A DNA stretch of 64,000 bases from an uncultured Candidatus Saccharibacteria bacterium (GCA_964394505.1 CAYMXR010000001.1:9878-73877); one strand, 5' to 3'. Numbered from the stretch's first letter, positions 1,412 to 62,826 are shown. Translations and numbers: made by a program. The notes: generated by a model not told the origin, from the letters alone.

Positions 1412-2629
1412 TTACATCGCATCCACCAAAGAATACATCGGTTGAATCATTGAAATTGCAAAAAATCCTACTGCCCCGCCAATGACCAAGATCAATATCG
1501 GCTCGATAATTGTAGACATATCTTTTGTTTTTTGGTTTACATCTTCCTCAAAATATTTTGCTACGCCCATTAACATTTCTCCAGTTTTACCTGTTTCTTC
1601 ACCAACACTCATCATTTCAACAAAGAAAATAGGATAATATTTCGTATACTCAGCAAATGTTTTTGACATCAATTCACCATTTTTGATAGCAAGAGAGGCT
1701 TTTTCCAAAGCTTTTTGAAAATAAATATTCTGAACAACCCTTGAAGTGATATTGACTGATTCGACTACATCTACTCCAGAACTGAGCAAAGAAGACATTG
1801 TTCTAGCAGTACGGGCAGTGTTAACTTCTTGCACCAAAGTTCCGATGACGGGAATCTTGAGTAAAAAAGCATGGATTGCCATTTTTCCGGAAGTCTTGCG
1901 CGCCCACCAGGATATAACTCCGATGACGGATAGTACAACAGCAAGAACAACCAAACCGTGATCCCTAACAAGATTACTTATAATCAAAACCACCTGGGTA
2001 GTTGCAGGTAATTTGACATGAAGATCGGTAAAAGTCTTGAGCAAAGTCGGAATAACAAACATAAACATGAGTATCGCAATGATGATCATCGCTATCAAGA
2101 TAACCGCTGGGTACATGAGCGCACCTCTGATCCTTTTGTCCAGAGTATATGCACTATCCATCTGTGAGGCTACAATAGCAAGAGAATCTGCCAAAGTTCC
2201 AGATTGCTCTCCAGCATGGACCATAGCAATGAATAGGTTTGAAAATACTTTTGGATGTTTGGACAAAGAATCAGCAAGAGTAACTCCTTTATCAACTTCC
2301 TGAATAACATCAGATATCACAGTTTTGAATACTGGATTCTTTGTCTGTTTCTCCAAAACAACAAGAGCTCTCGAAAGAGCCAAACCGGCCGATAACATCG
2401 CCCCTAGATTTCTAGCAAAATTTATCTTTTCAATAGTCTTGACCCTGCTCAACATAGAGATAGTCAAGTTGAGATGGATGCCTTTTCCATTTGATTTTTC
2501 TTTGTATTCTACAACTTCATCACCTTGACTACGAAGTAATTTGTACAATTCATAATGATCAGAAGCATCTCGCTCCCCTTTGTATATCTCTCCTGATATT
2601 TTTTTTGCTTTGAAAATAAAGTGGGACAT
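1412..2629 (-). CDS. pilC: Type IV pilus assembly platform protein PilC / GspF family
   Basis: 405 aa with two GspF repeats and three TM segments; adjacent to pilB on the same strand. Confidence 0.8.
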   Translation of the reverse strand: MSHFIFKAKKISGEIYKGERDASDHYELYKLLRSQGDEVVEYKEKSNGKGIHLNLTISMLSRVKTIEKINFARNLGAMLSAGLALSRALVVLEKQTKNPVFKTVISDVIQEVDKGVTLADSLSKHPKVFSNLFIAMVHAGEQSGTLADSLAIVASQMDSAYTLDKRIRGALMYPAVILIAMIIIAILMFMFVIPTLLKTFTDLHVKLPATTQVVLIISNLVRDHGLVVLAVVLSVIGVISWWARKTSGKMAIHAFLLKIPVIGTLVQEVNTARTARTMSSLLSSGVDVVESVNITSRVVQNIYFQKALEKASLAIKNGELMSKTFAEYTKYYPIFFVEMMSVGEETGKTGEMLMGVAKYFEEDVNQKTKDMSTIIEPILILVIGGAVGFFAISMIQPMYSLVDAM

Positions 2630-2745
2630 GATAGTGAAAAATTATAAGTGCAAAGTGAAAATTTAGATCTATAAATTTCAAATCAGTTTCAATCTTAAAT
2701 CTAAAATCTAAACTGATACCCGAACAAAACTCCTCAATCTCACAA

Positions 2746-4494
2746 CTAATCTGTAATCACACGCAAAACTTCTTCGATCGTAGTCAAACCTTGAACACAT
2801 TTGAATATACCGTCTTCCAACATGGTCAACATCCCCTCTTTTTTGGCTTGTTCTTCTATTTCACTCGAGGTTGCATTTTTCATGATCAAATTCTTGATTG
2901 ATTGGGTCATAGTCAAAACTTCGTGAATACCGACGCGACTCTTGAAACCATCATCGTCTGGTCCTGGTACAGCTTTCCAAAAAGATATTCTATCCCAATT
3001 ATCAGATGGCTTTATTATCTTCCCAGCCTTAAGCGCAGCTAAAACCCTATCGAGATCAACAATCTTTCCCAATTGAGCAAATTCATCCTTGGTCAATTTG
3101 TATTCTTGTTTGAGATCAGACAACCGACGTACCAATCGTTGGCCGATAACCACATCGAGAGTAGAAACCAAAAGAAATGGCTCAACTTTCATATCCAAAA
3201 GACGAGGAATCGCGCCAGCAGCAGAGTTTGTGTGTAAAGTAGAAAGAACCAAGTGTCCAGTAAGAGCCGCGTTTATAGCTAGTGCCGCTGTTTCATTGTC
3301 TCGAATCTCTCCTACCATGATCACATCTGGGTCTTGTCTAACCAAAGTTCGTATACCTTGAGGAAATGAAAAACCGATCTCTGGTCGAACTTGAGTCTGG
3401 TTTATCCGAGCCATCTGGTATTCGATAGGATCTTCTATTGTCGAAATATTAACATCCGGAGTATTCAAAATATCTAACATTGTATACAAAGTAGTAGTTT
3501 TTCCAGAACCAGTGGGGCCCGTCATGAGAATCATGCCTGTGGTTTTTTTCAGCACTTTATGAATAGCTTCAAGTCCTTCCCCATGAAAATTGAGATACTC
3601 CAAAGTAAAACCAGATATACTTTCGCGCAAAAGACGCATAACTATCTTTTCTCCATAATAAGTAGGCAGTATCGATACACGGAAAGAAACTTTTTCATCA
3701 CTCATGTCCACTTTGAAACGACCATCTTGAGGTAAACGCTTTTCATCGAGTTTCAAATTTGCCAATACCTTGATCCTAGCCGAAACCGATGGACCAGCCT
3801 GTTTTGGAAGCACCATCGCATCATGCAACAAGCCATCGATCCTGTACCTTATCAAAACCTGTTCTTCCATTGGCTCAATGTGAATATCGGATGCGTTTTG
3901 TAAAATTGCATGCTTAATGAGTGTGTCAACTATGCGGACGACTGGTAAATCTTCGGCAATCTTTTTTAGATCGGCCTCTGTGGCGTTTTCTCCACTTTCC
4001 TCAGAGATCATCTTGAGCGATGCTGTCTCTTTTTGGATTAGATCACCGAATTCTGCTTTTAGACTTTTCTGATATTGAACCAAAACTTCCTTGATCGAAT
4101 CCGAATCAGTCAGACGAGGCAAAATCTTTAGATTGACTTTCTTTTTAATAAAATCAATAGCCGAAAGGTCATTTACATCAAGCATTGCAACTTCCAAAGC
4201 AACATCGGTTTTTTTGAAAGCGACGATATTGTGAGCTCTTGCAATAGGTTCTGGAATAAGAGTTAATGTTTCAAAAGGTAGTTTTTTGCCTTTAAGATCA
4301 ACAAAAGGAATACCCAAACCATAGGCTTGCATTCGGCGGAGATTGTCGGCACTGATCTTGCCAGAAGTGACCAAAACATCTCCAAATGGTTTCTTTTTCG
4401 ACTCGCTTTCTTTCTTTGCGTCCAAAAGATCCTCTTTGCTTACCAAGCCAGAGTCGAGAATAAATTTATATAATTGGGTATCTTCAACGAGCAT
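2746..4494 (-). CDS. pilB: Type IV pilus assembly ATPase PilB / GspE family
   Basis: Walker A GPTGSGKTTTLY; Asp box and His box typical of the GspE family. The track start at 4548 is a TTG; the ATG at 4494 (MLVEDTQLYKF) is preferred. Lacks the C-terminal tetracysteine motif. Confidence 0.85.
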   Translation of the reverse strand: MLVEDTQLYKFILDSGLVSKEDLLDAKKESESKKKPFGDVLVTSGKISADNLRRMQAYGLGIPFVDLKGKKLPFETLTLIPEPIARAHNIVAFKKTDVALEVAMLDVNDLSAIDFIKKKVNLKILPRLTDSDSIKEVLVQYQKSLKAEFGDLIQKETASLKMISEESGENATEADLKKIAEDLPVVRIVDTLIKHAILQNASDIHIEPMEEQVLIRYRIDGLLHDAMVLPKQAGPSVSARIKVLANLKLDEKRLPQDGRFKVDMSDEKVSFRVSILPTYYGEKIVMRLLRESISGFTLEYLNFHGEGLEAIHKVLKKTTGMILMTGPTGSGKTTTLYTMLDILNTPDVNISTIEDPIEYQMARINQTQVRPEIGFSFPQGIRTLVRQDPDVIMVGEIRDNETAALAINAALTGHLVLSTLHTNSAAGAIPRLLDMKVEPFLLVSTLDVVIGQRLVRRLSDLKQEYKLTKDEFAQLGKIVDLDRVLAALKAGKIIKPSDNWDRISFWKAVPGPDDDGFKSRVGIHEVLTMTQSIKNLIMKNATSSEIEEQAKKEGMLTMLEDGIFKCVQGLTTIEEVLRVITD

Positions 4495-4548
4495 TAGGTT
4501 AATTATAATGCTATAAAACTTTTTAGTCCAATAGTTGTAAATTACCAA

Positions 4549-4700
4549 TTTTCAATTATCAATAACCCCTACTACGCTCGCTAATCGCGAGCTTCGCAGG
4601 GCAGGCAATGATCAATCAAACACACTGCGATTCACTTGCTTGCCCTTCGTAGCCCCGAGTTTTTATCGAGGGGCGTAGAAGGGAAAATTGATAATTATTT
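4549..4700. repeat. MITE-like palindromic element with imperfect terminal IRs (ATTATCAATAACCCCTACTACG / CGTAGAAGGGAAAATTGATAAT), a central 12/14 hairpin, and a CCCGAGTTTTTATCGAGGGG hairpin
   Basis: Seen directly in the sequence. Confidence 0.5.
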
Positions 4701-4952
4701 AAACCATTTGCACGCATTTGACAGTCATGCTATACTATTGTCGTCAAGTAACTGTTCGCCCACCGGCGAACATGTTTGTTAAAAGGGAGAATGTTTAGTG
4801 CAAAGTGTAAAGTTTTAGTTAATAGTTGATATTTATTATATTAAAATACTATACTGACTCAAAAAACTTAACGCCTTTCCACCACAACTTTGCATTTTAC
4901 ACTTTGCACTTTTCACTTACAATACAATTTAATAAAAACTAAATATAAGAAC

Positions 4953-6113
4953 ATGTTTGATCTAAAAGTAATTAATTCAGTAGTTCAACAATTAGAAGAA
5001 GAACGAGGTATTCCAAAAGAAAAGACACTGGAAGCCATCTCCATGGCCTTTGCTACTGCTTACAAAAAAGAATACGGCAAGAAAGGCCAGATTATTCGCG
5101 CTTCATTTGACCAAAACTCTGGTGCTGTTGAATTTTGGCAGGTAAAGATAGTAGTTGACCATGATCAAGTGATCATGGAAGGCGATGAAGATACTCAAGA
5201 AAATCTCAAAGAGACTGCCGTAGAAGACATCAAGATCCGCTTCAACCCAGAACAACACATTTTCATCGAAGATGCGCGCAAGATAAAGAGAGAAGCGATC
5301 ATCGGTGATGAATTGGTTTTTCCACTTGAGACAAAAGCTGATTTTGGTCGCATCGCCGCTCAGACAGCAAAACAAATCATCATCCAAAAGATTCGCGAGG
5401 CTGAAAAAGTCTCGGTTATGAGCGAATACGGCCAAAAAGAAGGTGAAATTGTCGCTGGAATAGTCGAAAGAGTCGAAAGGGGTGTCATATATATAGATAT
5501 GGGACGAGCGATTGGTGTTATTCCTTACGAAGAACAGATCCCTAGCGAACATTGGAAAACTGGTGACCGTATTCGCGCCTATCTCTTTGCCGTTGAAGAG
5601 ACACCAAAAGGCATTGTCCTCAAGCTTTCTCGCGCTCATCCAAAATTCCTCGCAAAACTATTTGAAACAGAGACCCCAGAGATTGCCTCCGGTGTTGTTG
5701 AGATCAAAAATGTTGCCCGAGAAGCAGGATCGAGATCGAAGATTGCAGTTATTTCTCATGATTCACATATCGATCCGATCGGATCCATGGTTGGTCAAAG
5801 AGGTGTACGCGTAACAACAGTTACCAGCGAGCTTTCTGGTGAAAAGATAGATATTGTCGAATGGAATGAGGATCCTGCTCTATTTATTGAGGAAGCCCTC
5901 TCTCCTGCCGAAGTTGTTTCTCTAGAATTAGATGAAAAAGAACATCGAGCTATAGTTACCGTCACCGAAGATGAGCAATCATTAGCAATCGGTAAGGGTG
6001 GCCAAAATGTCCGCCTTGCCGCCAAACTCACCGGCTGGAAGATTGATATCAAGTCAATTGGAGGAATAGAAGAGTTGGATTTACCTGAGAATGCTGAAGG
6101 TGTAGAGAAATAG
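4953..6113 (+). CDS. nusA: Transcription termination/antitermination factor NusA
   Basis: MFDLKVINSVVQQLEEERGIPKE N-terminus, S1 and KH regions; the track start at 4890 is extended and the ATG at 4953 is used. Confidence 0.9.
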   Translation: MFDLKVINSVVQQLEEERGIPKEKTLEAISMAFATAYKKEYGKKGQIIRASFDQNSGAVEFWQVKIVVDHDQVIMEGDEDTQENLKETAVEDIKIRFNPEQHIFIEDARKIKREAIIGDELVFPLETKADFGRIAAQTAKQIIIQKIREAEKVSVMSEYGQKEGEIVAGIVERVERGVIYIDMGRAIGVIPYEEQIPSEHWKTGDRIRAYLFAVEETPKGIVLKLSRAHPKFLAKLFETETPEIASGVVEIKNVAREAGSRSKIAVISHDSHIDPIGSMVGQRGVRVTTVTSELSGEKIDIVEWNEDPALFIEEALSPAEVVSLELDEKEHRAIVTVTEDEQSLAIGKGGQNVRLAAKLTGWKIDIKSIGGIEELDLPENAEGVEK

Positions 6114-6129
6114 ACTACTAAGGGTTTTT

Positions 6130-6150
6130 ATCTCGAGTTTTTATCGAGAG
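6130..6150. repeat. CTCGAG-family hairpin TCTCGAGTTTTTATCGAGAGA, nested in a larger AGGGTT...AACCCT palindrome
   Basis: Seen directly in the sequence. Confidence 0.5.
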
Positions 6151-6195
6151 AACCCTCAGGGTTGAGCCGTGAAATTAGAATAATTGGAATTAAAC

Positions 6196-11833: not shown

Positions 11834-12586
11834 TTACATCAACACCTTCGATAGGGCAACGACTGCGGCTGTCTCAGCACGCAAAATCTGTTTACCAAGG
11901 CTGCAAATCGAGACCTTGTTAGCGTGAAACATGTCTAGCTCAGCCGTCGACCACCCTCCTTCTGGCCCTATGAAAACAGCTAGCGACTGTCCGGCGAGGT
12001 CTGACCTCGCCCCACCATCTGTATGAAAAGCAACACCTCTGATAGATTCTGAGCCATCATTTGCGACAGGTTGAGAAAAAACCTGGGCGAGGTCAGACCT
12101 CGCCGAATGTACCACCGGTACATCACCCCTCCCACACTGTTCACTCGCCTCTACTGCAATTTTTTGCAGGCGTTCCATATTCAAATCTTTTTTTTCACTC
12201 CGTTCTGTGATAACTGGAACAATATCGGTAACACCGAGCTCGGTTGCTTTTTCCGTAATCCACTCAAATTTATCTTTTTTTACGACCGCCTGATATAAGA
12301 CAACTTTTCGCGTTGGCATAAATCGGCTAGGTCGGACCTCGCAGACTGCTAAATGCAATTGGCTCCCTCCGCGAGGTTTTTTACCCCGAGCGAAGTCGAG
12401 GGGAACCTCAAGGAGAACACATTCAAAATCATTACCAGACCCATCGAAAACTACAATCTTGTCGCCAGAACCCAAACGGAAAACTCGACTGATCTGATTT
12501 ACAAGTTCAGGCGAATCGATAACCAACTCTTTTTTTGAGCCAATTTTTTCTGTGATGTAAAATCGATGAAGTCTCATTTTGATCAC
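11834..12586 (-). CDS. rsmE: 16S rRNA (uracil1498-N3)-methyltransferase RsmE, carrying three in-frame palindromic-repeat insertions
   Basis: MRLHRFYI...VVFDGSG...IGPEGGWS...RAETAA motifs. The gene is GC-rich relative to its neighbours. Confidence 0.75.
   Translation of the reverse strand: MIKMRLHRFYITEKIGSKKELVIDSPELVNQISRVFRLGSGDKIVVFDGSGNDFECVLLEVPLDFARGKKPRGGSQLHLAVCEVRPSRFMPTRKVVLYQAVVKKDKFEWITEKATELGVTDIVPVITERSEKKDLNMERLQKIAVEASEQCGRGDVPVVHSARSDLAQVFSQPVANDGSESIRGVAFHTDGGARSDLAGQSLAVFIGPEGGWSTAELDMFHANKVSICSLGKQILRAETAAVVALSKVLM
11993..12011. repeat. Palindromic repeat GGCGAGGTC-T-GACCTCGCC (copy A, in-frame in rsmE, encodes ARSDLA)
   Basis: Perfect 9+1+9 palindrome. Confidence 0.8.
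12086..12104. repeat. Palindromic repeat GGCGAGGTC-A-GACCTCGCC (copy B, in-frame in rsmE)
   Basis: Perfect 9+1+9 palindrome. Confidence 0.8.
12328..12346. repeat. Degenerate copy of the palindromic repeat (GCTAGGTCGGACCTCGCAG), copy C, in-frame in rsmE
   Basis: Imperfect palindrome sharing the GGTCGGACCTCGC core. Confidence 0.5.
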
Positions 12587-12631
12587 TGAGGTGCAACCTC
12601 AGTACTGAGGCTTCCCCTCAGTGTTAAGCCA

Positions 12632-15276: not shown

Positions 15277-15549
15277 ATGAACAAAGCAAGTATTGTTGAT
15301 GCAGTTCACGCAGTTCTAGCAGGAACAAAGGTTCAAGCAGAACAAGCAGTAGAGACAGTCATTAATAGCATTATTGACTCTCTAAAGAAAGGTGAAGAAG
15401 TTTCTATCGCAGGTCTCGGTATTTTCTCAGTCAAGCAAAGAGCCGCTCGTGAAGCACGCAATCCTCGCACAGGTGAGGCCATCAAGGTCCCAGCTATGAA
15501 AGTTCCAAAGTTCCGCGCAGCAAAGGCTTTGAAGGATGCGGTAAAATAG
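15277..15549 (+). CDS. hup: DNA-binding protein HU
   Basis: MNKASIVDAVHA...GLGIFSVKQRAAREARNPRTGEAIKVPAMKVPKFRAAKALKDAV; the track ORF from 15043 is an artefactual 5' extension. Confidence 0.85.
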   Translation: MNKASIVDAVHAVLAGTKVQAEQAVETVINSIIDSLKKGEEVSIAGLGIFSVKQRAAREARNPRTGEAIKVPAMKVPKFRAAKALKDAVK

Positions 15550-15581
15550 CACGCTTAGGTATTTCAATTTACAAAGTAACA

Positions 15582-15614
15582 AAAAACCCTGAGCATGTCG
15601 AAGGGTTTTTTGTT
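15582..15614 (+). terminator. Rho-independent terminator (AAAAACCCT-GAGCATGTCGA-AGGGTTTTTT); copy 1 of a duplicated ~65-bp module
   Basis: Stem-loop plus T-run directly after hup. Confidence 0.7.
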
Positions 15615-15629
15615 ATTTGAGCACAAACC

Positions 15630-16172
15630 TCAAAACCTCATTTCGTACCAGTCTAAGCCATAGATATCCTGAATTAATATCCTTTCACCCTTTGCCCATG
15701 TCTTATTACTCTCCAAACCAAGAAGACTGATGGCCTTTTTAACACTCTTTTCGCTTGGACCTTCAACCTCGAGAAATGCAGGCATTCCTGGATATTGGTC
15801 TATATCAAATGTCCAATCTTTTAATGAAAAGGTTGTACGAATTTTTTCTTGATGCGCATATTTCTCAAGCCCGATTTCTTGAAATAAATCCGATAATTGC
15901 TCCGGTGTATCAATATTAAAATTTATTTCTTTATGTTTTCTTACACCATTAGAAATATTTGACTTTGCTTTCCAAGTCACCTCGTGCTTCCCTTCAGAAT
16001 TCGACCTTATTCGTAAAAACCAAAGATCCTCACCCTCCTTCGTACCAATTGGTCTATACCAATCGACTGTTAAGGTAGTTTTCTGTATCTTTTTTGCCTT
16101 CAATAAAATTAGTGACTTAATAACTTTTTTCTCATCAATATCCAAGACTTTTGTTTCAATTTCGAATGCCAT
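15630..16172 (-). CDS. CYTH-domain protein (triphosphate tunnel metalloenzyme / class IV adenylate cyclase-like)
   Basis: EIE.K...LRIR...E.K pattern; size 180 aa. Confidence 0.5.
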   Translation of the reverse strand: MAFEIETKVLDIDEKKVIKSLILLKAKKIQKTTLTVDWYRPIGTKEGEDLWFLRIRSNSEGKHEVTWKAKSNISNGVRKHKEINFNIDTPEQLSDLFQEIGLEKYAHQEKIRTTFSLKDWTFDIDQYPGMPAFLEVEGPSEKSVKKAISLLGLESNKTWAKGERILIQDIYGLDWYEMRF

Positions 16173-16176
16173 AAGA

Positions 16177-16623
16177 TTATTTAATCTCGTTACGAATTAG
16201 CTCTGAAACAACTCTCAGTTCTTCTTCAGGATTTTGTTCTCGGCTACCAGGGCGGTATAAAAATTTCCTTGGCTCATATTTGGTGATACCATCATCGCCG
16301 GCTTTTCTTGGTAACATGTGCAAATGAAAATGCGGAATCGATTGCCCTGCTATCTCACCTTCGTTCCATGCATAATTAAATCCCTCGGCTTGAAATACCA
16401 CGGTCAGTGACTTCTTCAATTTATTACAAATATCAAAAATGGCAGATTTTTCTTTGTCAGTAAGATCTTCAAAAAATGCGACGCAACGAAGGGGCGCTAT
16501 CAAGACATGTCCAGGTACTATGGGGATATTTGTTGGAAACGCCCACGCTAGATCATTTTTTATAATCATTCTTTCTTTAATAGCCGGGATACTGCAATAC
16601 GCACACCGTGCTTTATTTTTCAT
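16177..16623 (-). CDS. HIT-family (histidine triad) nucleotide hydrolase
   Basis: HFHLHMLPR histidine triad. Confidence 0.8.
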   Translation of the reverse strand: MKNKARCAYCSIPAIKERMIIKNDLAWAFPTNIPIVPGHVLIAPLRCVAFFEDLTDKEKSAIFDICNKLKKSLTVVFQAEGFNYAWNEGEIAGQSIPHFHLHMLPRKAGDDGITKYEPRKFLYRPGSREQNPEEELRVVSELIRNEIK

Positions 16624-16687
16624 GGGATAACTATATCAATAGAAGGAAATATATCAAAATAATACTACTTTGGTAGCTTATATATAA

Positions 16688-16716
16688 AAAACCACCCGCA
16701 CCGATCGCGAGTGGTT
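16688..16716 (-). terminator. Minus-strand terminator (AACCAC-loop-GTGGTT followed by TTTTTTATATAT)
   Basis: Hairpin plus T-run just past the stop of the 16737..17033 gene. Confidence 0.45.
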
Positions 16717-16736
16717 GTGAGGTAACCCGGAGCTGC

Positions 16737-17033
16737 CTACTTCTTGAAGCAGACAATGCCAAGACTATTGATACCGATTACCCCTTTGGCCACATTGATT
16801 ATGCTGATGTATTGATCTTCCCTTTCGTTATGGGATATCAGTCCCAGGAGAAACGCAGCCAACGAACACATAAACCCGACACCTAAACCAAACAACGCTG
16901 ACCGCCAAAGATCAAAACCCAACGACAGTGTACCCACCAGCCCGCACACCAATGCAGACCACGGGGTAAATGACATAAAAGCCATACTGAACCAGAGCGC
17001 AGCCTTGAAATGCAGCAGTGTCAATTTCTTCAT
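16737..17033 (-). CDS. Small hypothetical membrane protein
   Basis: Three hydrophobic segments in 98 aa. Confidence 0.35.
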   Translation of the reverse strand: MKKLTLLHFKAALWFSMAFMSFTPWSALVCGLVGTLSLGFDLWRSALFGLGVGFMCSLAAFLLGLISHNEREDQYISIINVAKGVIGINSLGIVCFKK

Positions 17034-17999: not shown

Positions 18000-18851
18000 A
18001 TGAATATACTTAAACCGAAACATATTGAGGAACAAATAATTAACCTTCTCGTAGGTGGTGAGAAATCCACAACCTCTCTTCTCGAACTAATGAGTACAAA
18101 GGTAAAGATAACCAAACAAGGCTTTTATGCTTCACTCCGAAAGCTTCGAGCCAATGAAACTGTCGTGGTTTACAAAGGCAAAGTCTCTCTAAATACAACT
18201 TGGATAGGCAAGATGCGCGATCTCGTGGAAATGATGAGCCGTACATATACCGCTGAGCCATATTCATCTGACTTTCTAAACCTTAACGACAAAGAAAGTA
18301 TTTCCTATTCATTCACTTCTATAAAAAGTTTGGATTCTTTTTGGGGTCATGTTCAAAATATCTTAATTCACAACACCAATAAAAATGAACCTATATACTG
18401 CTACGATCCACATTATTGGCTCTATCTAGTCCGCAGAGACACGGAAAAGGCCTTACTCAAAGAGATTGTAAGTATAAAAAGACAATTTCTGATGAGTAAT
18501 GGAGCGAAAAACAAACTTGACCGACTAATTAAAACAGATTTCAACAGCAATTATTTACAATATAATTACAAAAGACTGTTCGAAAAAGAAAATTACTATA
18601 TTACCGTTATCGGTGATTATATAACCGAAGTGTATATCGATGAAAAAGTTGCCAAGGATATTGATGCTATCTATAAAAATGAAGGTCTAGATACCAAAAC
18701 AGCAATTGAACTTCTAGCCGAATTCCTGCATTCAAGGACACGCAACAGGATCAAGATATCCAAAAATGCAAAACGGGCAATTAAACTAAAGAAAATGATG
18801 GGAAAAGACTTTTTTGTGATGGGGAGAAAAATAGAATCAGAGAGTCACTAA
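18000..18851 (+). CDS. Hypothetical protein with an N-terminal winged-helix-like segment
   Basis: 283 aa; the N-terminal ~60 aa resemble MarR/PadR-like wHTH proteins; C-terminus unknown. Confidence 0.4.
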   Translation: MNILKPKHIEEQIINLLVGGEKSTTSLLELMSTKVKITKQGFYASLRKLRANETVVVYKGKVSLNTTWIGKMRDLVEMMSRTYTAEPYSSDFLNLNDKESISYSFTSIKSLDSFWGHVQNILIHNTNKNEPIYCYDPHYWLYLVRRDTEKALLKEIVSIKRQFLMSNGAKNKLDRLIKTDFNSNYLQYNYKRLFEKENYYITVIGDYITEVYIDEKVAKDIDAIYKNEGLDTKTAIELLAEFLHSRTRNRIKISKNAKRAIKLKKMMGKDFFVMGRKIESESH

Positions 18852-18885
18852 TATCACGCCTAGGTATTTCAATTTTCAAAGTAAC

Positions 18886-18920
18886 AAAAGACCCTGAGCA
18901 TGTCGAAGGGTTTTTTGTTA
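18886..18920 (+). terminator. Rho-independent terminator; copy 2 of the duplicated ~65-bp module (near-identical to 15547-15614)
   Basis: Same stem-loop sequence and flanks as the hup terminator. Confidence 0.65.
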
Positions 18921-20626: not shown

Positions 20627-20746
20627 TTGTCCATTACGAAATACTATTTTGAGCCATATATTACAGACAACAACTTTTCTTGTAGATAATAGAAAAATTC
20701 AAAATTGCAGAGCCACAATAGGCTTTCTTTGAGACTAACTTCCCTG

Positions 20747-20817
20747 TGCGGGTAGGGAGAATCGAACTCCCACCTCGTCCTTGGCAAGGACGCGTCCTAC
20801 CACTAAACGATACCCGC
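20747..20817 (-). tRNA. tRNA-Gly (anticodon GCC); CCA not encoded
   Basis: Anticodon loop TTGCCAA, T-loop TTCGATT, 7-bp acceptor stem GCGGGTA/TACCCGC. Confidence 0.8.
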
Positions 20818-21063
20818 CTACGCAAATTTAGACCTCCGGTCTAAATTCGCTACGGCGGGCAAGCCCGCTTTGTCCGTAGTAATCTAGAACGAATTAATTG
20901 CCTAAATAAGCAACAAAAGAAGTATACCGTAATAATATTTTTTTACAAATCTAAATGTGCTGGCACTACTACACTCCTCGCAAGCTCAGCGCTACGAAGT
21001 GCTGGCACTACGAAGCCCTACATCGCGCACCAGCACACTGGTGCGCGATTGCGGGCGAAGTAG

Positions 21064-21135
21064 TGCCCTCGGAGGGACTCGAACCCCCAACAGCGGTTCC
21101 GAAGACCGATGTGATATCCATTTCACCACGAGGGC
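21064..21135 (-). tRNA. tRNA-Arg (anticodon UCG); CCA not encoded
   Basis: Acceptor GCCCTCG/CGAGGGC, perfect D-stem, anticodon loop CTTCGGA, T-loop TTCGAGT; one mismatch at the base of the anticodon stem. Confidence 0.6.
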
Positions 21136-26936: not shown

Positions 26937-26982
26937 CCTTGAGGTTTCTCTCGATAAACACTCGAGATAAATAAACTCAAGG
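26937..26982. repeat. Nested hairpin containing a member of the CTCGAG hairpin family (TCTCGATAAACACTCGAGA), with an outer CCTTGAGG/CCTCAAGG stem
   Basis: Inverted repeats directly after the NYN gene stop. Confidence 0.45.
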
Positions 26983-27045: not shown

Positions 27046-27669
27046 TCAGCTTCTGGAACAGTAATGAACCGAGGAATCGGCCTGTGGGTCATGAGTCCCA
27101 AATGTGAATGGCGTCGTCAATTCATCATAACCCTTGATCGACGGAAACAATCTCTGCATCTGTTCGTGCCGTCTCCGCCATTTGGCAAAGAGGTCACGAG
27201 CCTTTATGGGATCCTTCTCCTGAATAGCGCAGATTGCCTCTAATTCAGAAACCAAGGCTTTCTCGATCGCCTTCTCAACGTCGTCGAGCGCGCTCCAGTC
27301 TTCAAACTGTCTTCCGGTGACGCTTTCGACATACTGGATCGCTTCGATGAAGTCGACCGCGTTCTGCCAGTACTCAGAGCGACCGGCGAACGGCCAGGAA
27401 AACAGCCAAGTAATGACGGCACAGACCACCACAAACAGACCAACTATGACCCATGCCATTACAGACCATGATGTATTCACAAAAACTCCAAAGGCGGCAA
27501 AGGAGTAGCCGAATACGACGAAGGAAATCACCGCCACCAAAGCCACAAGCCACCGAGCTCCGCTCTTCGCTCTTTCATGAAGAAATACGGCTTCAACCAA
27601 ATCGTCGATCTCTGTCGGGTTCCAATCCGCATTAGAACCATAGGCAATTATTCTTCTTGCAAGTTTCAT
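27046..27669 (-). CDS. Hypothetical membrane protein encoded in a GC-rich (~50%) islet
   Basis: 207-aa ORF with 3-4 TM helices; the many overlapping ORFs on both strands reflect the high GC, so strand choice is uncertain. Confidence 0.35.
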   Translation of the reverse strand: MKLARRIIAYGSNADWNPTEIDDLVEAVFLHERAKSGARWLVALVAVISFVVFGYSFAAFGVFVNTSWSVMAWVIVGLFVVVCAVITWLFSWPFAGRSEYWQNAVDFIEAIQYVESVTGRQFEDWSALDDVEKAIEKALVSELEAICAIQEKDPIKARDLFAKWRRRHEQMQRLFPSIKGYDELTTPFTFGTHDPQADSSVHYCSRS

Positions 27670-27874
27670 AAAACCACCTCCTCAATACCCCAATTCACAA
27701 TGCCAGGCTTTCAGGCGGACACATCGGTTTCAACCGACACGTCGTTACAAGCAAAGAGATGGGTAGGGGAAATTTACGCACATCTAGTGTGAAATTACAT
27801 CTAATAATGGTGTCTGTCAAGTTCAATTAAAATCACGGGCGTGTTAAATTGGTATTGCTTGGCGATGTCGCTTG

Positions 27875-27895
27875 TCTCGAGTTTATCGAGAGAGA
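27875..27895. repeat. CTCGAG-family hairpin TCTCGAGTTTATCGAGAGA, immediately followed by a GACCTCGCC half-site
   Basis: Seen directly in the sequence. Confidence 0.5.
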
Positions 27896-28013
27896 CCTCG
27901 CCCGAAGCACCTTATCAATTAATACTCACCCCCAGATACACAGGTTTTTGTGGCAAATTTTTGCAAAGCGTTTCAAAAACAAAATTTGCAATCTGTAATC
28001 TCGGGATGAGTTT

Positions 28014-28044
28014 CGCTTCCGGCGAGGTCGGACCTCGCCGGAAA
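28014..28044. repeat. Extended perfect palindrome TTCCGGCGAGGTC-G-GACCTCGCCGGAA (copy D), 10 nt upstream of the pnp ATG
   Basis: 13+1+13 palindrome. Confidence 0.8.
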
Positions 28045-28054
28045 CAACAAAAAA

Positions 28055-30205
28055 ATGAATAAAAAAGAATATACGCTCGAGATCGGTTCGAAAACTCTTA
28101 CAGCAGAGTTCAACGATATCACCGATCAGACAAACGGGGCAGTGATGCTTCGCTACGGTAACACCGTCGTCCTAGCCACAGCCGTCATGGGCAAGGAACC
28201 AAAAGATGGTGACTTTTTTCCACTTACAGTCGATTACGAGGAAAGGTTTTATGCCACTGGCAAGATTCTCGGTTCTAGATTTATGCGTAGAGAAGGTAGA
28301 CCTTCGACCGAAGCTATTCTCTCCGGAAGAATAGTCGACCGTACTATCCGCCCTCTCTTCAATCAAAAAATGCGTCACGAAGTACAGGTAGTGCTTACAA
28401 CATTGTCCATAGGCGATGAGGACGCAGATTCTGTTTCGGTTATTGCCGCTTCTCTTGCTCTAGGAACTTCTGATATTCCATGGAATGGACCAGCATCGGC
28501 CATCAGAATTGGAAAAAAGGAAACTTATGTTATCAATCCGGAAACCAAGGACCGTGAAGGTGCAGATGTAGCGTTGGACATGATCGCTTGCGGAAAAGAT
28601 GGCATGATCAATATGATCGAAGTCGGAAGTAAAGAGGTTAGCGAAGAAACAGTAAACGAGGCTCTTGCTATCGCTTCAACAGAAATCGAAAAAATCCAGA
28701 CTTGGCAAAAAAAGATCATTGCAGATATCGGAAAAGAAAAGAAGATTGTCGAATTGCCAGTTGCAACCGAGGGAACAAAAGAATTATTTGAGGCGGAGAT
28801 TGCTCCCAAATTGAAAAAGTATGTCTTCAGTGGTCCAGGGAAAAAGAAATTGGAAGAAATCACCGATGAGTGGATGAAAATATTTATAGAAAAATTCCCA
28901 GAAGGAAATACTGGCATGGCTATGGAAATATTTGAGGAAGCTGTAAACGACTTGCTTCACAATGAAGCGATCGAGAATGACAAACGCCCTGATGGCAGAA
29001 CAATGGACGAAGTCCGGCCACTATTTGCACGAGCTGGTGGCATATCACCAATTCTTCATGGTTCGGGAATATTTTACCGAGGTGGAACGCATGTTTTATC
29101 TATCCTTACACTCGGATCTCCCGGAGATGCTCTTCTCATCGACGGCCTCACCATGCAAGAAAACAAAAGATTTATGCACCACTACAACTTCCCACCATTT
29201 TCGACAGGAGAGGTTGGTCGCATGGGTGGAACAAATAGAAGAATGATTGGACACGGTGCTTTGGCAGAAAAAGCTTTATTGGCAGTCATACCAGACAAAG
29301 ATAAATTCCCATATACAATCCGTCTAGTGTCCGAAGCTTTGGCCTCAAACGGATCAACTTCAATGGGTTCGGTTTGCGGATCTACTCTCGCCCTCATGGA
29401 TGGTGGTGTTCCAATAAAAGCTCCTGTTGCTGGCATTGCATCTGGTCTTATGATGTCACCAAACTTTGCTCGAGACGGTAAATACAAAGTTCTTACTGAC
29501 ATCCAAGGCCCAGAAGATCATCATGGTGATATGGACTTCAAAGTCGCTGGTACTAGAAACGGGATCACGGCGGTCCAAATGGATGTTAAAGTTGGCGGTA
29601 TTCCTCTCAAAATCCTAGCTGAAGCTTTCGTCAAAGCCAAAAATGCCCGATCCAAAATTCTCGATGTTATAGAAAAAGAAATTCCTGCTTCTCGTGAAAA
29701 AATTTCTCCAAATGCTCCAGAAATTATTGTTATGAAAATAAAACCAGATCAGATTGGTTTAGTCATAGGCACTGGAGGCAAAACTATAAATGAAATTCGT
29801 GAGGTTACCAAAGTGGAAGATATAACCATAGAAGACGACGGGACTGTATTTATTACCGGTAAAAATGAAACTGCACAGAAAGCAAAAGATATCATCTATG
29901 GAATGACAAGGGAATATTTACCAGGAGAGAAATTTGACGGGGAAGTAGTCCGACTTATGGACTTCGGCGCTTTCGTAAAAATTGGACCAAATGCCGAAGG
30001 ATTGGTACATGTCTCAGAGATTGCCCCATTCCGCGTGGAAAGAGTTGAAACTTATATCAAGGAAGGGGACATCGTTCCTGTTGCGGTCAAAGAAAAAGAT
30101 GAAAAGGGAAGATTGAATCTATCGATCAAGAACGCAAACCCGACATTCTTTACTAAAAAAGAAGAGATGCCAAAACCAAAGTCAGAGTTTAAGAAAAGGT
30201 TTTAG
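28055..30205 (+). CDS. pnp: Polyribonucleotide nucleotidyltransferase (PNPase)
   Basis: 716 aa; two RNase PH domains, KH and S1 domains. Confidence 0.95.
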   Translation: MNKKEYTLEIGSKTLTAEFNDITDQTNGAVMLRYGNTVVLATAVMGKEPKDGDFFPLTVDYEERFYATGKILGSRFMRREGRPSTEAILSGRIVDRTIRPLFNQKMRHEVQVVLTTLSIGDEDADSVSVIAASLALGTSDIPWNGPASAIRIGKKETYVINPETKDREGADVALDMIACGKDGMINMIEVGSKEVSEETVNEALAIASTEIEKIQTWQKKIIADIGKEKKIVELPVATEGTKELFEAEIAPKLKKYVFSGPGKKKLEEITDEWMKIFIEKFPEGNTGMAMEIFEEAVNDLLHNEAIENDKRPDGRTMDEVRPLFARAGGISPILHGSGIFYRGGTHVLSILTLGSPGDALLIDGLTMQENKRFMHHYNFPPFSTGEVGRMGGTNRRMIGHGALAEKALLAVIPDKDKFPYTIRLVSEALASNGSTSMGSVCGSTLALMDGGVPIKAPVAGIASGLMMSPNFARDGKYKVLTDIQGPEDHHGDMDFKVAGTRNGITAVQMDVKVGGIPLKILAEAFVKAKNARSKILDVIEKEIPASREKISPNAPEIIVMKIKPDQIGLVIGTGGKTINEIREVTKVEDITIEDDGTVFITGKNETAQKAKDIIYGMTREYLPGEKFDGEVVRLMDFGAFVKIGPNAEGLVHVSEIAPFRVERVETYIKEGDIVPVAVKEKDEKGRLNLSIKNANPTFFTKKEEMPKPKSEFKKRF

Positions 30206-60664: not shown

Positions 60665-62356
60665 CTAATCTTGTAAAGCGATAACCCTCTCAAGTTCTTC
60701 CAAAGAAGTAATACCTTGAAGAGCTTTTAATACTCCATCTTGACGCATGTTCAAAATACCTTGACCCTTGGCGGCGGCCCAGATCTCGCGGTCGTTCGGA
60801 TTCATCTCTACCGCATCTTCGATTTTTTTATCAGTTAATATTGCCTCGTATACTCCAATTCTACCTTTGTAGCCGGTGTTGTTACATTTGTCGCAACCTA
60901 CAGGTATCCAAATTTTTGACCTTTCGCTAGGTACTAAACTTTTATCTTCTATTTCATTTATTATAATTTCTACCTCTTTTTGCATCTCTCCTTCGAGTGG
61001 AATTTCCTTTCTACAATACAGACAAAGTTTACGTGCCAATCTTTGGGCCATCGCCACGCGGATAGCCGAGGTTATGACTTTTGAATTGACTCCAAGGTCT
61101 ATAAGACGGGGAAATGTACCAGCAGCGTTATTTGTGTGCAATGTCGAGAAGACCATGTGACCCGTGAGAGCAGAATTTACGGCAATACTTGCGGTTTCAT
61201 TGTCGCGGATTTCGCCGATCATTATTACATCCGGATCTTGGCGGACCGTAGCTCGCAAACCTTCGGCAAAGTTGTAACCTTTTTCATTGACTTGAGTCTG
61301 TACTATCCCTTCTAGGTGGTATTCGATAGGGTCTTCAAGGGTGATAATTTTTAGATCAGGTGAATGAATCTTTTTTAGGAACGAATAGAGCGTTGTTGTT
61401 TTTCCAGAACCTGTAGGTCCAGTGGTTAGGATCATGCCATCTGGGCGAGTCATTTCTTTGAGTAAAATGTTGAGCAGTTTTGGATGTATACCTAAACTTT
61501 CTAGTGGAACATCTATCGATTTTGGATTGAGAAGACGCATCACAACAGATTCATTGTAAGCTCCGGGGAGGATCGATACGCGCACTTCGATATCTCCAAT
61601 TGCGAGTTTTATACTAAACCTTCCATCTTGGTTGTCTTTTTTGATATTCAATTTCATTCCCGAGATGAGTTTGATACGCGAAAGGAGTAGGGCATATGTG
61701 TCATTGTCAAAGCGGATAATGTCATGAAGAACACCGTCTAGGCGATAGCGAAGCAAGGCATAACCCTGCTCTGGTTCGAAATGAATGTCGGAGGCATCTA
61801 ATGCAAGAGCTCCAGCCACGGATGTTTCCAAAATTCTAGAAACCCTGTAACTCATTCGGGTCGCAAGTAATGTTTGGAGAATCTTAACCACATCAGGCAA
61901 GGTCTTGGTTTGGTTTATTATCTTAGTGATTTCTTCATTAGAAATTTCTAGTGAACCAGCTTTGCTTTCGTAAGCAAAAGAGAGGTCTTTGTAACCAAGC
62001 CAAGCTTTCTCTAGGCTTTGAGTGGAAGCTATGTTTAATTCTGGGGTATAACCTTTGGCTCTAAGTCCTTCTAGAACGGCGACAACTTTTTCGTCTTCTG
62101 GGTTTCTAGATGCAACTTTGATTTTTTTATCAACAATGGCGTACCCGGCCACTTGGGCATTTCTAGCGGTTGTTTCGTCTATCAATCGCAGAGCGTCGGT
62201 GTTTATGTTTATCGAGATAAGATTGACATAATCGAGGCCGTATTTACCGGAAAGAACCTGAACGAGATCCTCCTCTTCTTTGTGTAAAAGATCATTCAGT
62301 TTTCTCTTTTGTTTGTCTTCGTCGAATGTGATGGTCATGTAAACATTATAGCGCAT
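60665..62356 (-). CDS. Second GspE/PilB-family secretion ATPase (retains the C-terminal tetracysteine motif)
   Basis: Walker A GPTGSGKTTTLY; CLYCRKE...CDKCNNTGYKGR. Confidence 0.85.
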   Translation of the reverse strand: MRYNVYMTITFDEDKQKRKLNDLLHKEEEDLVQVLSGKYGLDYVNLISININTDALRLIDETTARNAQVAGYAIVDKKIKVASRNPEDEKVVAVLEGLRAKGYTPELNIASTQSLEKAWLGYKDLSFAYESKAGSLEISNEEITKIINQTKTLPDVVKILQTLLATRMSYRVSRILETSVAGALALDASDIHFEPEQGYALLRYRLDGVLHDIIRFDNDTYALLLSRIKLISGMKLNIKKDNQDGRFSIKLAIGDIEVRVSILPGAYNESVVMRLLNPKSIDVPLESLGIHPKLLNILLKEMTRPDGMILTTGPTGSGKTTTLYSFLKKIHSPDLKIITLEDPIEYHLEGIVQTQVNEKGYNFAEGLRATVRQDPDVIMIGEIRDNETASIAVNSALTGHMVFSTLHTNNAAGTFPRLIDLGVNSKVITSAIRVAMAQRLARKLCLYCRKEIPLEGEMQKEVEIIINEIEDKSLVPSERSKIWIPVGCDKCNNTGYKGRIGVYEAILTDKKIEDAVEMNPNDREIWAAAKGQGILNMRQDGVLKALQGITSLEELERVIALQD

Positions 62357-62400
62357 AAGAGGGAAGTTCTGCGAATGCTATATTTTCCGCGAGGTGTTGT

Positions 62401-62427
62401 GGAGGGCGAGGTCGGACCTCGCCCTCC
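62401..62427. repeat. Extended perfect palindrome GGAGGGCGAGGTC-G-GACCTCGCCCTCC (copy E) in the divergent spacer
   Basis: 13+1+13 palindrome. Confidence 0.8.
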
Positions 62428-62532
62428 AATCGATCTTGACAAGTGAGGTCTATCCGTGCTAGTATCATAAGCGAATCTCAAGGCTGTGTGGTCTTGGGGA
62501 AAAACAACAATTCAGAAATCGGAGAACTTAGA

Positions 62533-62826
62533 ATGAAGACTCAATATTTTTTGTCGGCACTGGTCGCTTTACTGGTGTGCACCTCGGGGTGCGGGACTTT
62601 CAACAACGAGACAGTGAAGTTCACGGATACCAAGTTCGATCCTGGGACCACAAATGTGGTGTCCAGGACTGAGTTCGAACAGGTTAACCGATCTCGGTCG
62701 TTTAACCAGCCTGGTTCGTCCGTCGGCCACGACGGCACGTTTCTTCGGTTTCGGGCTTCGGTTGGGGGTGGAGCTCCGTATCAACCTATCTGGATCCAGC
62801 AGGGTCCCTACAGGTACTCCCAATGA
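62533..62826 (+). CDS. Small secreted or lipoprotein-like hypothetical protein in a GC-rich (~55%) islet
   Basis: MKTQYFLSALVALLVCTSGCG signal; GC content far above the flanks. Confidence 0.35.
   Translation: MKTQYFLSALVALLVCTSGCGTFNNETVKFTDTKFDPGTTNVVSRTEFEQVNRSRSFNQPGSSVGHDGTFLRFRASVGGGAPYQPIWIQQGPYRYSQ

Follow-up and report, generated by a model that had tools for sequence, protein, structure and literature searches.

A perfect GC-rich palindrome stands immediately in front of pnp, at about positions 28,014 to 28,044 of a 64,000-nucleotide stretch of DNA from an uncultured Candidatus Saccharibacteria bacterium (GCA_964394505.1 CAYMXR010000001.1:9878-73877; hereafter, the window). What is it, and why does the same sequence recur elsewhere? 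An earlier, sequence-only reading had placed the palindrome at five loci and proposed a mobile palindromic repeat, a protein-binding operator or, at pnp, an RNase III-type autoregulatory hairpin. The evidence considered here makes it likely that the palindrome is a miniature mobile repeat of Patescibacteria, similar to repetitive extragenic palindromes (REPs) and belonging to a system of the REP-associated tyrosine transposase (RAYT) type. RsmE and polynucleotide phosphorylase (PNPase) homologues assign the window to Patescibacteria (Paceibacteria or Taylorbacteria-like). Samples in which the organism is present include SRR12762285, SRR12762287, SRR12712865, DRR198493 and JGI 3300043411.

A family of short palindromes in the window

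The palindrome, GGCGAGGTC-N-GACCTCGCC (family 1; searched as GGCGAGGTCNGACCTCGCC), occurs exactly at 11993-12011, 12086-12104, 28021-28039 and 62405-62423 and with two mismatches to GGCGAGGTCNGACCTCGCC at 12325-12343. Allowing up to three mismatches, 0.02 copies are expected in 64 kb, and none of 100 shuffles reaches five, which bears out the earlier count of loci. The copies outside rsmE, listed without strand, and the gene downstream of the first are as follows.

28017-28043: family-1 copy TTCC-GGCGAGGTC-G-GACCTCGCC-GGAA (13+1+13) in the pnp leader; fold -15.2 kcal/mol, z -5.1
62400-62428: family-1 copy TGGAG-GGCGAGGTC-G-GACCTCGCC-CTCCA (14+1+14); fold -16.8 kcal/mol, z -7.1
27861-27902: split family-1 copy, GGCGAtGTC (27861-27869), 24 nt (GCTTGTCTCGAGTTTATCGAGAGA), GACCTCGCC (27894-27902); second-tier insert at the palindrome centre
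28055-30205, plus strand: pnp, polynucleotide phosphorylase, downstream of the 28017-28043 copy

At 74-79% G+C, the core contrasts with ~40% for the window, and the copies fold as single-stranded DNA with energies between -9 and -17 kcal/mol and z between -3.8 and -7.1. Their unit length of 19-29 nt is that of the short hairpins of REPs (about 20-40 bp). When the 100-nt flanks of the five copies are aligned, similarity ends at the palindrome edge, and a longer miniature inverted-repeat transposable element (MITE) was rejected because no sequence is shared beyond the palindrome. An Rfam scan of the whole window at the gathering threshold returned only 4 tRNAs and no match at the palindromes.

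Two copies are intergenic. The copy at 28017-28043 lies between a divergent open reading frame (ORF; 27046-27669, minus strand) and pnp, and ends 11 nt before the ATG at 28055; the sequence-only reading had its 13+1+13 arms right, with a span a few bases too wide and a distance of 10 nt. The copy at 62400-62428, previously read as 62401-62427 with 13+1+13 arms, has a pilB-like gene (60665-62356, minus strand) on one side and on the other a small lipoprotein-like ORF (ATG 62533), and is unchanged in four contigs that encode an identical PilB-like protein. A sigma-70 promoter scan around both copies found one promoter-like site, TTGACA-18-TAGTAT, which starts 7 nt downstream of the 62400-62428 copy; under a strict consensus there is no sigma-70 promoter at the pnp copy. 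No intrinsic terminator is predicted around either copy, and a terminator role was rejected on that ground.

Two further positions had been taken for isolated half-sites. The one at 27896 is really the right arm (27894-27902) of the split copy listed above, and is the only exact 9-mer half-site outside full copies in a scan of the window. The other, at 12385, falls within a split palindrome whose arms, CGCGAGGTT (12370-12378) and AACCTCAAG (12404-12412), are 25 nt apart. The window thus holds four exact, one degenerate and one split copy per 64 kb.

The palindrome brackets a gene for a RAYT-like transposase

In three other Patescibacteria assemblies (L046, L049 and L144), the identical 19-mer lies directly beside a gene for a protein of ~210 amino acids, and in two of them it lies on both sides. 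In L046 and L144, it flanks an ORF of 208-210 amino acids (208 in L046), with the upstream copy ending 13-16 nt before the ATG and the other overlapping the 3' end of the ORF; the complementary centre bases of the two flanking copies place them in inverted orientation. In L049, the 19-mer is found 10 nt before the ATG of a 221-aa ORF, a further copy lies in frame within the ORF, and 3 nt past the stop comes GGCAAGGTC-C-GACCTTGCC, a variant with compensated changes at two pairs. The L046 protein is 44% identical to that of L049 and 84% identical to that of L144.

Both sequence and predicted fold place this protein among the Y1 transposases. Pfam PF01797, Y1_Tnp ('Transposase IS200 like'), matches the L046 and L049 proteins with 25.4 and 39.8 bits (cut-off 23), most homologues carry a precomputed PF01797 match, and the sole NCBIfam family matched is NF047646, 'REP-associated tyrosine transposase'. 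The HUH-motif histidines (H82-x-H84), Y142 and N146 are invariant in alignments of 16 and 41 sequences, P147 is also conserved, and the motifs YH-x2-NRG and MPNH-x-H, the latter containing HUH, are invariant or nearly so. The E. coli enzyme TnpA-REP has Y115 and N119, that is, the same Y-x3-N spacing (PMC3479197). An AlphaFold model of the RAYT-like protein (pLDDT 83, pTM 0.80) has as its top structural match 4ER8, TnpA-REP bound to a REP hairpin (E 4e-5, TM 0.61 normalised to the target), with the IS608 and ISDra2 transposases close behind (E 2e-4 to 1e-3).

The gene adjoins a glyceraldehyde-3-phosphate dehydrogenase (GAPDH) gene in L046, L049, L115 and L144, and in two of these loci its opposite neighbour is gatB. 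Because this neighbourhood is kept among loci whose GAPDH is only ~60% identical, the gene order points to a RAYT-like gene that is vertically inherited and non-mobile. Vertical inheritance has been described for RAYTs (PMC5581495), and none of the loci examined contained the gene twice.

The association extends to the family at large, which has 647 matches in a protein collection (with Zambryski-, Yanofsky-, Vogelbacteria and Paceibacterota labels) and 589 more relatives in a metagenome scan. Among the 75 metagenomic homologue loci with both flanks present, 23 have a matched short GC-rich perfect palindrome upstream of the gene and at or near its stop, compared with none of 200 shifted control intervals; a looser filter gives 32 of 82. 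Between the upstream copy and the matched region lie 8-100 nt, and the downstream copy is usually within ~20 nt of the stop. The palindrome itself varies by locus (for example, TTCCGAGGAC-t-GTCCTCGGAA, ACCGAGGGT-t-ACCCTCGGT, TGCAAGGT-ttc-ACCTTGCA and CACGGGTT-g-AACCCGTG), with many, not all, fitting the theme [CA][GA]AGG...CCT[CT][GT]. Among loci with an asymmetric loop, 13 have their two copies in inverted and 9 in direct orientation. A gene bracketed by a dispersed palindrome is the defining arrangement of REP/RAYT systems (PMC5581495, PMC3116915). The suggestion of a mobile palindromic repeat in the sequence-only reading is thus supported by the RAYT-like Y1 gene beside the 19-mer in three assemblies and by the bracketed metagenomic loci, together with the nesting and the 19-nt strain difference in a related hairpin family described below.

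Palindromes occupy in-frame sites within rsmE

A point absent from the sequence-only reading is that the sites at 11993, 12086, 12325 and 12370-12412 all fall within one gene, rsmE, and are all in frame.

11834-12577, minus strand: rsmE, 16S rRNA m3U1498 methyltransferase (PF04452, PF20260), host of four palindrome sites
12086-12104: site A, family-1 copy (9+1+9 with a central A), translated in frame as ARSDLA
11993-12011: site B, family-1 copy (9+1+9 with a central T), translated in frame on the minus strand as ARSDLA
12370-12412: site C, split palindrome CCGCGAGGTT, 25 nt, AACCTCAAGGAG, in frame, with a longer loop
12325-12343: site D, degenerate family-1 copy GGCTAGGTCGGACCTCGCA (2 mismatches), read as CEVRPSR; weak fold, -3.7 kcal/mol

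Site D overlaps the conserved protein motif E-V-x-P-S-R. Sites A and B are separated by conserved coding sequence, and the family-1 copies are singlets. At site C, the net insert is 24 nt, so the reading frame is kept; the inserts of L002 and L004 at this site are also 24 nt, each with TCTCGA..TCGAGA, and the outer part of the window's site C is the element that is intact in L004 at sites A and B.

A codon alignment of rsmE from six related contigs (59-78% protein identity) shows that the same three or four sites are occupied by palindromes in nearly all of them and that the sequence of the occupant varies by genome.

L001: GCTAGGTC-A-GACCTAGC
L002 and L006: CGCGAGGC-CTC-GCCTCGCG
L004: CCGCGAGGTT-A-AACCTCAAGGAG, the same at two sites
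L007: 13-0-13

The palindromes are alike between the sites of one genome and unlike between genomes at one site; at site B, for instance, L001, L002, L004, L006 and L007 all have other palindromes at the orthologous position. Orthologous copies differ symmetrically, at paired positions: GCGAGG/CCTCGC becomes GCTAGG/CCTAGC in L001, and two paired changes are present in L002. We predict that intragenic copies, in the RAYT gene as in the four rsmE sites, would persist only where they are of a length that preserves the frame and where an added loop is tolerated by the protein.

The peptides ARSDLA, RGRTSP, QGRTL, GEVGPR and ARPRLA recur in Patescibacteria proteins, RAYT included, as footprints of the repeats. 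For annotation, this means that such peptides in Patescibacteria proteins are to be read as element footprints and that gene callers can absorb a copy into a falsely extended ORF, as in the L143 pnp gene considered below.

Palindromes are nested within palindromes

The insert of the split copy at 27861-27902 is itself a repeat. This second-tier unit is asymmetric, ~24 nt long, with the consensus TTTATCTCGAG-n-TTTATCGAGAGA (also given as TTTATCTCGAG..TATCGAGAGA). It occurs three times in the window, compared with 0.05 expected, and is also present in L002, L004 and L141. The two further nested sites in the window are as follows.

6121-6156: AGGGTT, 24 nt (TTTATCTCGAGTTTTTATCGAGAG), AACCCT, 8 nt after the nusA stop; third second-tier copy in the window
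26937-26982: CCTTGAGGTT, 26 nt (TCTCTCGATAAACACTCGAGATAAAT), AAaCTCAAGG, just past the stop of an NYN-domain gene (ends 26933)

At 26937-26982, the outer part matches the L143 pnp-leader palindrome, and the insert matches that of L002 at rsmE site C. All six Patescibacteria copies of the second-tier unit lie at the exact centre of another palindrome (xAGG..CCTx), and site C of the window (12370-12412) is a diverged seventh nested case. Outer arms around the unit differ from copy to copy.

Window, 27861-27902: GGCGAtGTC/GACCTCGCC
L002, rsmE site C: CACGAGGC/GCCTCGTG
L004, rsmE site C: GAGGTT/AACCTC
L141, from ~8741: AGCGAGG/CCTCGCT

Stems are also extended at the outside. In 9 of 18 core copies, the stem continues for at least 4 bp (4-9 bp) of unrelated sequence, for which ~0.07 copies would be expected. 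Because of the nesting and these arbitrary stem extensions, we infer that new copies integrate in the apex of existing hairpins.

A sister hairpin family differs between strains. The spacer between clpP and rsmE holds the following pair.

12584-12623: two tandem hairpins, CACTGAGG-tgcaa-CCTCAGT and ACTGAGG-cttcc-CCTCAGTG

L135, which is 99% identical to the window, has one ACTGAGG-N5-CCTCAGT hairpin in this spacer where the window has two in tandem, a difference of 19 nt. In the same spacer, L002 has the ACTGAGG-type family and L007 a related hairpin, CCGAGGT-tgc-ACCTCGG; the family is also present just after rsmE in L001 and elsewhere in L005 and L141.

The 19-mer in other genomes

The palindrome is not limited to the window. 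A scan for the exact 19-mer in one genome per species (185,579 species) found 47 matching stretches, most of them single matches in genomes above 57% G+C, as chance predicts. The low-GC matches are mostly from Patescibacteria, with four copies in JAIEMM01, two in JBPOJJ01 and one each in Taylorbacteria, Vogelbacteria and Saccharibacteria assemblies; altogether, the exact 19-mer is present in at least nine other low-GC assemblies. Solo copies are more numerous than the gene. They are found in L012, L039, L029, L036 and others, and also away from the gene in the assemblies where the 19-mer flanks it, and solo 19-mers occur with no remnant of a RAYT gene nearby.

The core also recurs within one high-GC genome. 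In the actinobacterial (Acidimicrobiales) metagenome-assembled genome CBDCGK01 (67% GC), contig_4 has the 19-mer core twice (L034 7062 and L053 1693), within arms that are 12-13 bp longer, GGTAGCAGAA..TTCTGCTACC, and contain GTAG/CTAC. This element may be a classical GTAG-tagged REP, with the core in common either by chance or by descent.

Comparison with known systems

The system resembles the REP/REPIN and RAYT systems of E. coli and Pseudomonas (PMC3479197, PMC3116915, PMC5581495) in its dispersed short GC-rich hairpin palindromes that bracket a Y1/HUH gene, often in inverted orientation, in the conserved chromosomal position of that gene, in the lineage-specific palindrome and in the fold, the HUH and Y-x3-N motifs and the top match to 4ER8. 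It differs in several respects. The stems are perfect rather than bulged, and the units, of 17-29 nt, are for the most part solitary and do not form REPIN doublets, which are seen in sister families only (L002 18-0-18, L079 and L082) and not in family 1. Nor is the location extragenic: four of the eight family-1-type sites of the window lie in rsmE, in frame, and copies occur in RAYT ORFs too. The protein, at ~210-230 amino acids, has a long C-terminal helical extension and aligns structurally with the E. coli enzyme at ~13% identity.

Other differences and null results weigh against assigning the palindrome to a RAYT-type system. The NF047646 scores of 31-47 bits are below the cut-off of 80, so the curated model is not passed, and a sequence-profile search of the PDB with the RAYT alignment gave no match. 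The flanks of the 18 exact copies have no GTAG/CGTC tag or other shared tetranucleotide at the hairpin foot, nor do the RAYT-flanking copies in 32 loci share one, whereas in E. coli the GTAG/CGTC tag is essential for binding and cleavage (PMC3479197; PMC3733652). The apparent copy number is low, with only four exact copies in the entire JAIEMM01 assembly. A tblastn search for the RAYT gene found none in the 64-kb window or in 8-22-kb syntenic loci of close relatives, so its presence in this genome is assumed. No pair of empty and filled sites was found for the main family: L136-L140, which have an identical PNPase or PilB-like protein, and L135 at rsmE carry identical copies. Finally, at sites A and B the loops of distant RsmE homologues are similarly long but contain no palindrome, so that simple insertion need not account for these two sites.

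The in-frame copies have precedents, as intragenic REPs are documented (PMC3733652). Intragenic REPs and the Rickettsia palindromic elements (RPEs; Di Nocera et al. 2013, PMC3733652) are likewise in-frame palindromes in functional genes, several per gene, that add short loops. RPEs and intragenic REP dimers encode ~20-50 residues, whereas the elements considered here encode 6-9. A further difference is that every relative examined here has the same sites filled, but with palindromes that differ.

Small dispersed repeats (SDRs) of Nostoc and other cyanobacteria, reportedly described by Elhai and co-workers in 2008, are said to be 21-27 nt long and to form hairpins with compensatory changes and nested insertions. 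The palindromes here share with SDRs the very small size, the compensated hairpin and the nesting of element within element; SDRs differ in sequence and phylum and are not known to have an assigned transposase, whereas the palindromes here are directly linked to a RAYT-like gene.

The nesting also has a parallel, in that REP hairpins are known targets of other mobile DNA (PMC3733652). Here, however, the loop insert is a 24-nt hairpin and not an insertion sequence (IS), and the transposase gene is not seen as a multicopy unit.

The pnp leader and the alternative explanations

The pnp leader raises the possibility that the palindrome is a host hairpin. In each of the three lineages examined, a perfect palindrome precedes the pnp ATG by 8-11 nt, and a conserved TGTAAT-like box lies upstream of the palindrome.

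Window: TTCC-GGCGAGGTC-G-GACCTCGCC-GGAA
L143, PNPase 94% identical to that of the window: CTCCTTGAGGTT-A-AACCTCAAGGA
L141, PNPase 91% identical to that of the window: TCTGCTAGG-CGAGA-CCTAGCAGA

The stems are only 9-13 bp, compared with the long leader stem cleaved by RNase III in an autoregulated pnp of the E. coli type, and belong to another sequence family in each lineage. Because a different family is found at the same position in each, the site persists while its occupant is replaced. The L143 family has its own RAYT loci (L102), and split copies of it are present in the window at 26937-26982 and in rsmE. In L143, pnp has been called from an upstream TTG, by which the palindrome (204-230) is absorbed into the ORF and adds LRLNLKEQK.

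It is possible, from this placement, that the pnp-leader hairpin has a host function, for example as a 5' stabiliser or regulatory stem. An explanation of the whole family in these terms would hold that the palindromes are non-mobile regulatory or structural hairpins (a pnp leader stabiliser or autoregulator, or a site for RNase III or RNase Y) that resemble each other through convergence or gene conversion. Their position at pnp in lineages with 91-100% identical PNPase and the symmetric, compensatory differences between orthologous copies in L001 and L002 agree with it. We nevertheless regard it as unlikely. Positional persistence at pnp is not specific for regulation because the rsmE coding sites, where a leader role is impossible, behave alike, and identical 19-mers are found at four unrelated sites of one genome and beside a transposase gene in distant genomes. 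Copies are nested, all pairs are Watson-Crick with none of the G-U type, as for a palindrome at the level of DNA, and a 13-bp stem is short for RNase III.

Less likely still is an ordinary autonomous IS of the IS200/IS605 type, with the solo palindromes as decayed ends or MITE-like derivatives. The Pfam family matched is 'IS200-like', the IS608 and ISDra2 transposases are structurally close, and the ends of such elements are also subterminal hairpins (PMC3479197, PMC6006769), on which a Y1 transposase acts in single-stranded DNA (PMC3479197). However, the top structural match and the sole NCBIfam match are to TnpA-REP, and the two flanking hairpins have the same sequence here, whereas the left and right ends of IS200/IS605 elements differ. 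The constancy of the gene beside a GAPDH gene only ~60% identical between genomes, the solo 19-mers with no gene remnant nearby and the single gene copy per locus do not fit such an IS either.

A binding site for a dimeric DNA-binding protein (an operator, as the sequence-only reading had also proposed, or a partition or nucleoid-organising site) appears very improbable. The dyad is perfect, two copies are in divergent promoter regions, and one is 7 nt upstream of a -35-like TTGACA. Half of the copies, however, are inside coding sequence, different palindromes occupy the same site in close relatives and an identical sequence is common to distant genomes. Arbitrary stem extensions and inserts that split the dyad suit a hairpin and not an operator of fixed spacing.

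A DNA-uptake signal or restriction-modification target made frequent by uptake or repair bias is the least credible of these explanations, despite the type IV pilus genes pilB and pilC and the inverted pairs of uptake sequences in Neisseria, as the density of ~1 per 10 kb is far under that of uptake sequences, half-sites occur only as parts of split copies, and the linkage to a transposase gene accounts directly for the family. A CRISPR reading was considered and set aside.

Other features of the window

The GC-rich islets that the sequence-only reading had placed next to the extended copies are weakly discernible, at 48% and 47% G+C in the relevant 1-kb bins. Beside the pnp copy, 27046-27669 (minus strand) encodes a predicted membrane protein of 207 aa with no Pfam match, which has only 32% identity to its positional counterpart in L141, against 91% for the neighbouring pnp. 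Beside the 62400-62428 copy, 62533-62826 (plus strand) encodes the lipoprotein-like ORF of 97 aa. Both genes seem to be fast-evolving, and no link was found between the repeats and these two genes.

A hairpin of another kind, TGTTCGCC-loop-GGCGAACA, is found at 4753-4772, in the spacer that separates nusA (4890) from a divergent pilB-like gene (2746-4548, minus strand). It recurs in L004 (18237), L005 (8706), L006 (8098), L007 (9420) and L075 (3695), with conserved arms and a variable loop of 3-7 nt. It lies just downstream of a TTGACA..TACTAT-like promoter, its flanks (ttaacaaaga and attacttaacgacaa) are kept in four relatives, and it has no Rfam match. These features suggest that the nusA operon has a conserved leader hairpin or operator here.

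Between two 99%-identical blocks, the window has 1.4 kb with three small minus-strand ORFs (15594-16985), for which the L135 counterpart (2518-4967) has 2.45 kb that encode a periplasmic binding protein together with a TrmB-like regulator. Repeats of 50-70 nt bound this strain-variable islet (L135 584-654 and window 15545-15615; L135 4968-5016 and window 18850-18898).

Two long, imperfect inverted repeats adjoin tRNA genes. One, at 21004-21067, has 30-nt arms that are 80% complementary, and ends approximately at the start of tRNA-Arg(tcg) (21063-21135); the other, at 20813-20859, has 22-nt arms and starts in the last bases of tRNA-Gly(gcc) (20746-20817). Both are unrelated in sequence to the GGCGAGG family.

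A possible mechanism and its implications

If the palindrome is a REP-like mobile repeat, as we favour, its cognate enzyme would be a RAYT-like HUH/Y1 tyrosine transposase encoded outside the window, by a gene predicted to be present once, beside the GAPDH gene and perhaps gatB, with the 19-mer around it. By analogy with E. coli TnpA-REP and IS200/IS605 TnpA, we infer that this enzyme would be catalytically active, would bind the hairpin on single-stranded DNA (a candidate substrate is TGAGGCGAGGTCNGACCTCGCCTCA), cut it by way of a 5'-phosphotyrosine intermediate and transfer the strand. New copies would land preferentially in the single-stranded apex of pre-existing hairpins. Targeting of this kind would explain the centred nesting, the common core with unrelated stem extensions and the re-occupation of sites by other families in close relatives. 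The pnp and pilB2 copies would be ordinary family members that lie in divergent promoter regions, and any regulatory effect would be secondary.

More speculatively, a distinct clade of Patescibacteria RAYT-like proteins might drive what is perhaps the smallest mobile DNA, perfect palindromes of 19-24 nt that insert specifically into hairpin apices to give 'Russian-doll' hairpins. Sites such as gene leaders and the loop codons of rsmE would then be permanently occupied while their occupants are replaced, and some, such as the pnp leader, may be useful to the host. If this tentative picture were true, it would provide a handle on REP-type target choice, which is still open for classical REPs.

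Most REP/RAYT systems described so far are from Proteobacteria, although cyanobacteria and other phyla have some, and their spread and targeting are not yet resolved; full-text searches of an incomplete literature collection returned no paper linking REP/RAYT to Patescibacteria or the candidate phyla radiation (CPR). Overall, what is observed here would represent a stripped-down REP/RAYT logic, in which a hairpin repeat is paired with a Y1 transposase of domesticated appearance, in reduced, gene-dense CPR genomes: a perfect palindrome of 19-29 nt that has no guide tetranucleotide. Because intergenic space is scarce in these genomes, copies lie in frame within essential genes and within each other, and the targeting can therefore be read from sequence alone, with six of six second-tier elements centred in another hairpin. 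The result is a testable model for this family, in which integration would occur into hairpin loops on single-stranded DNA.

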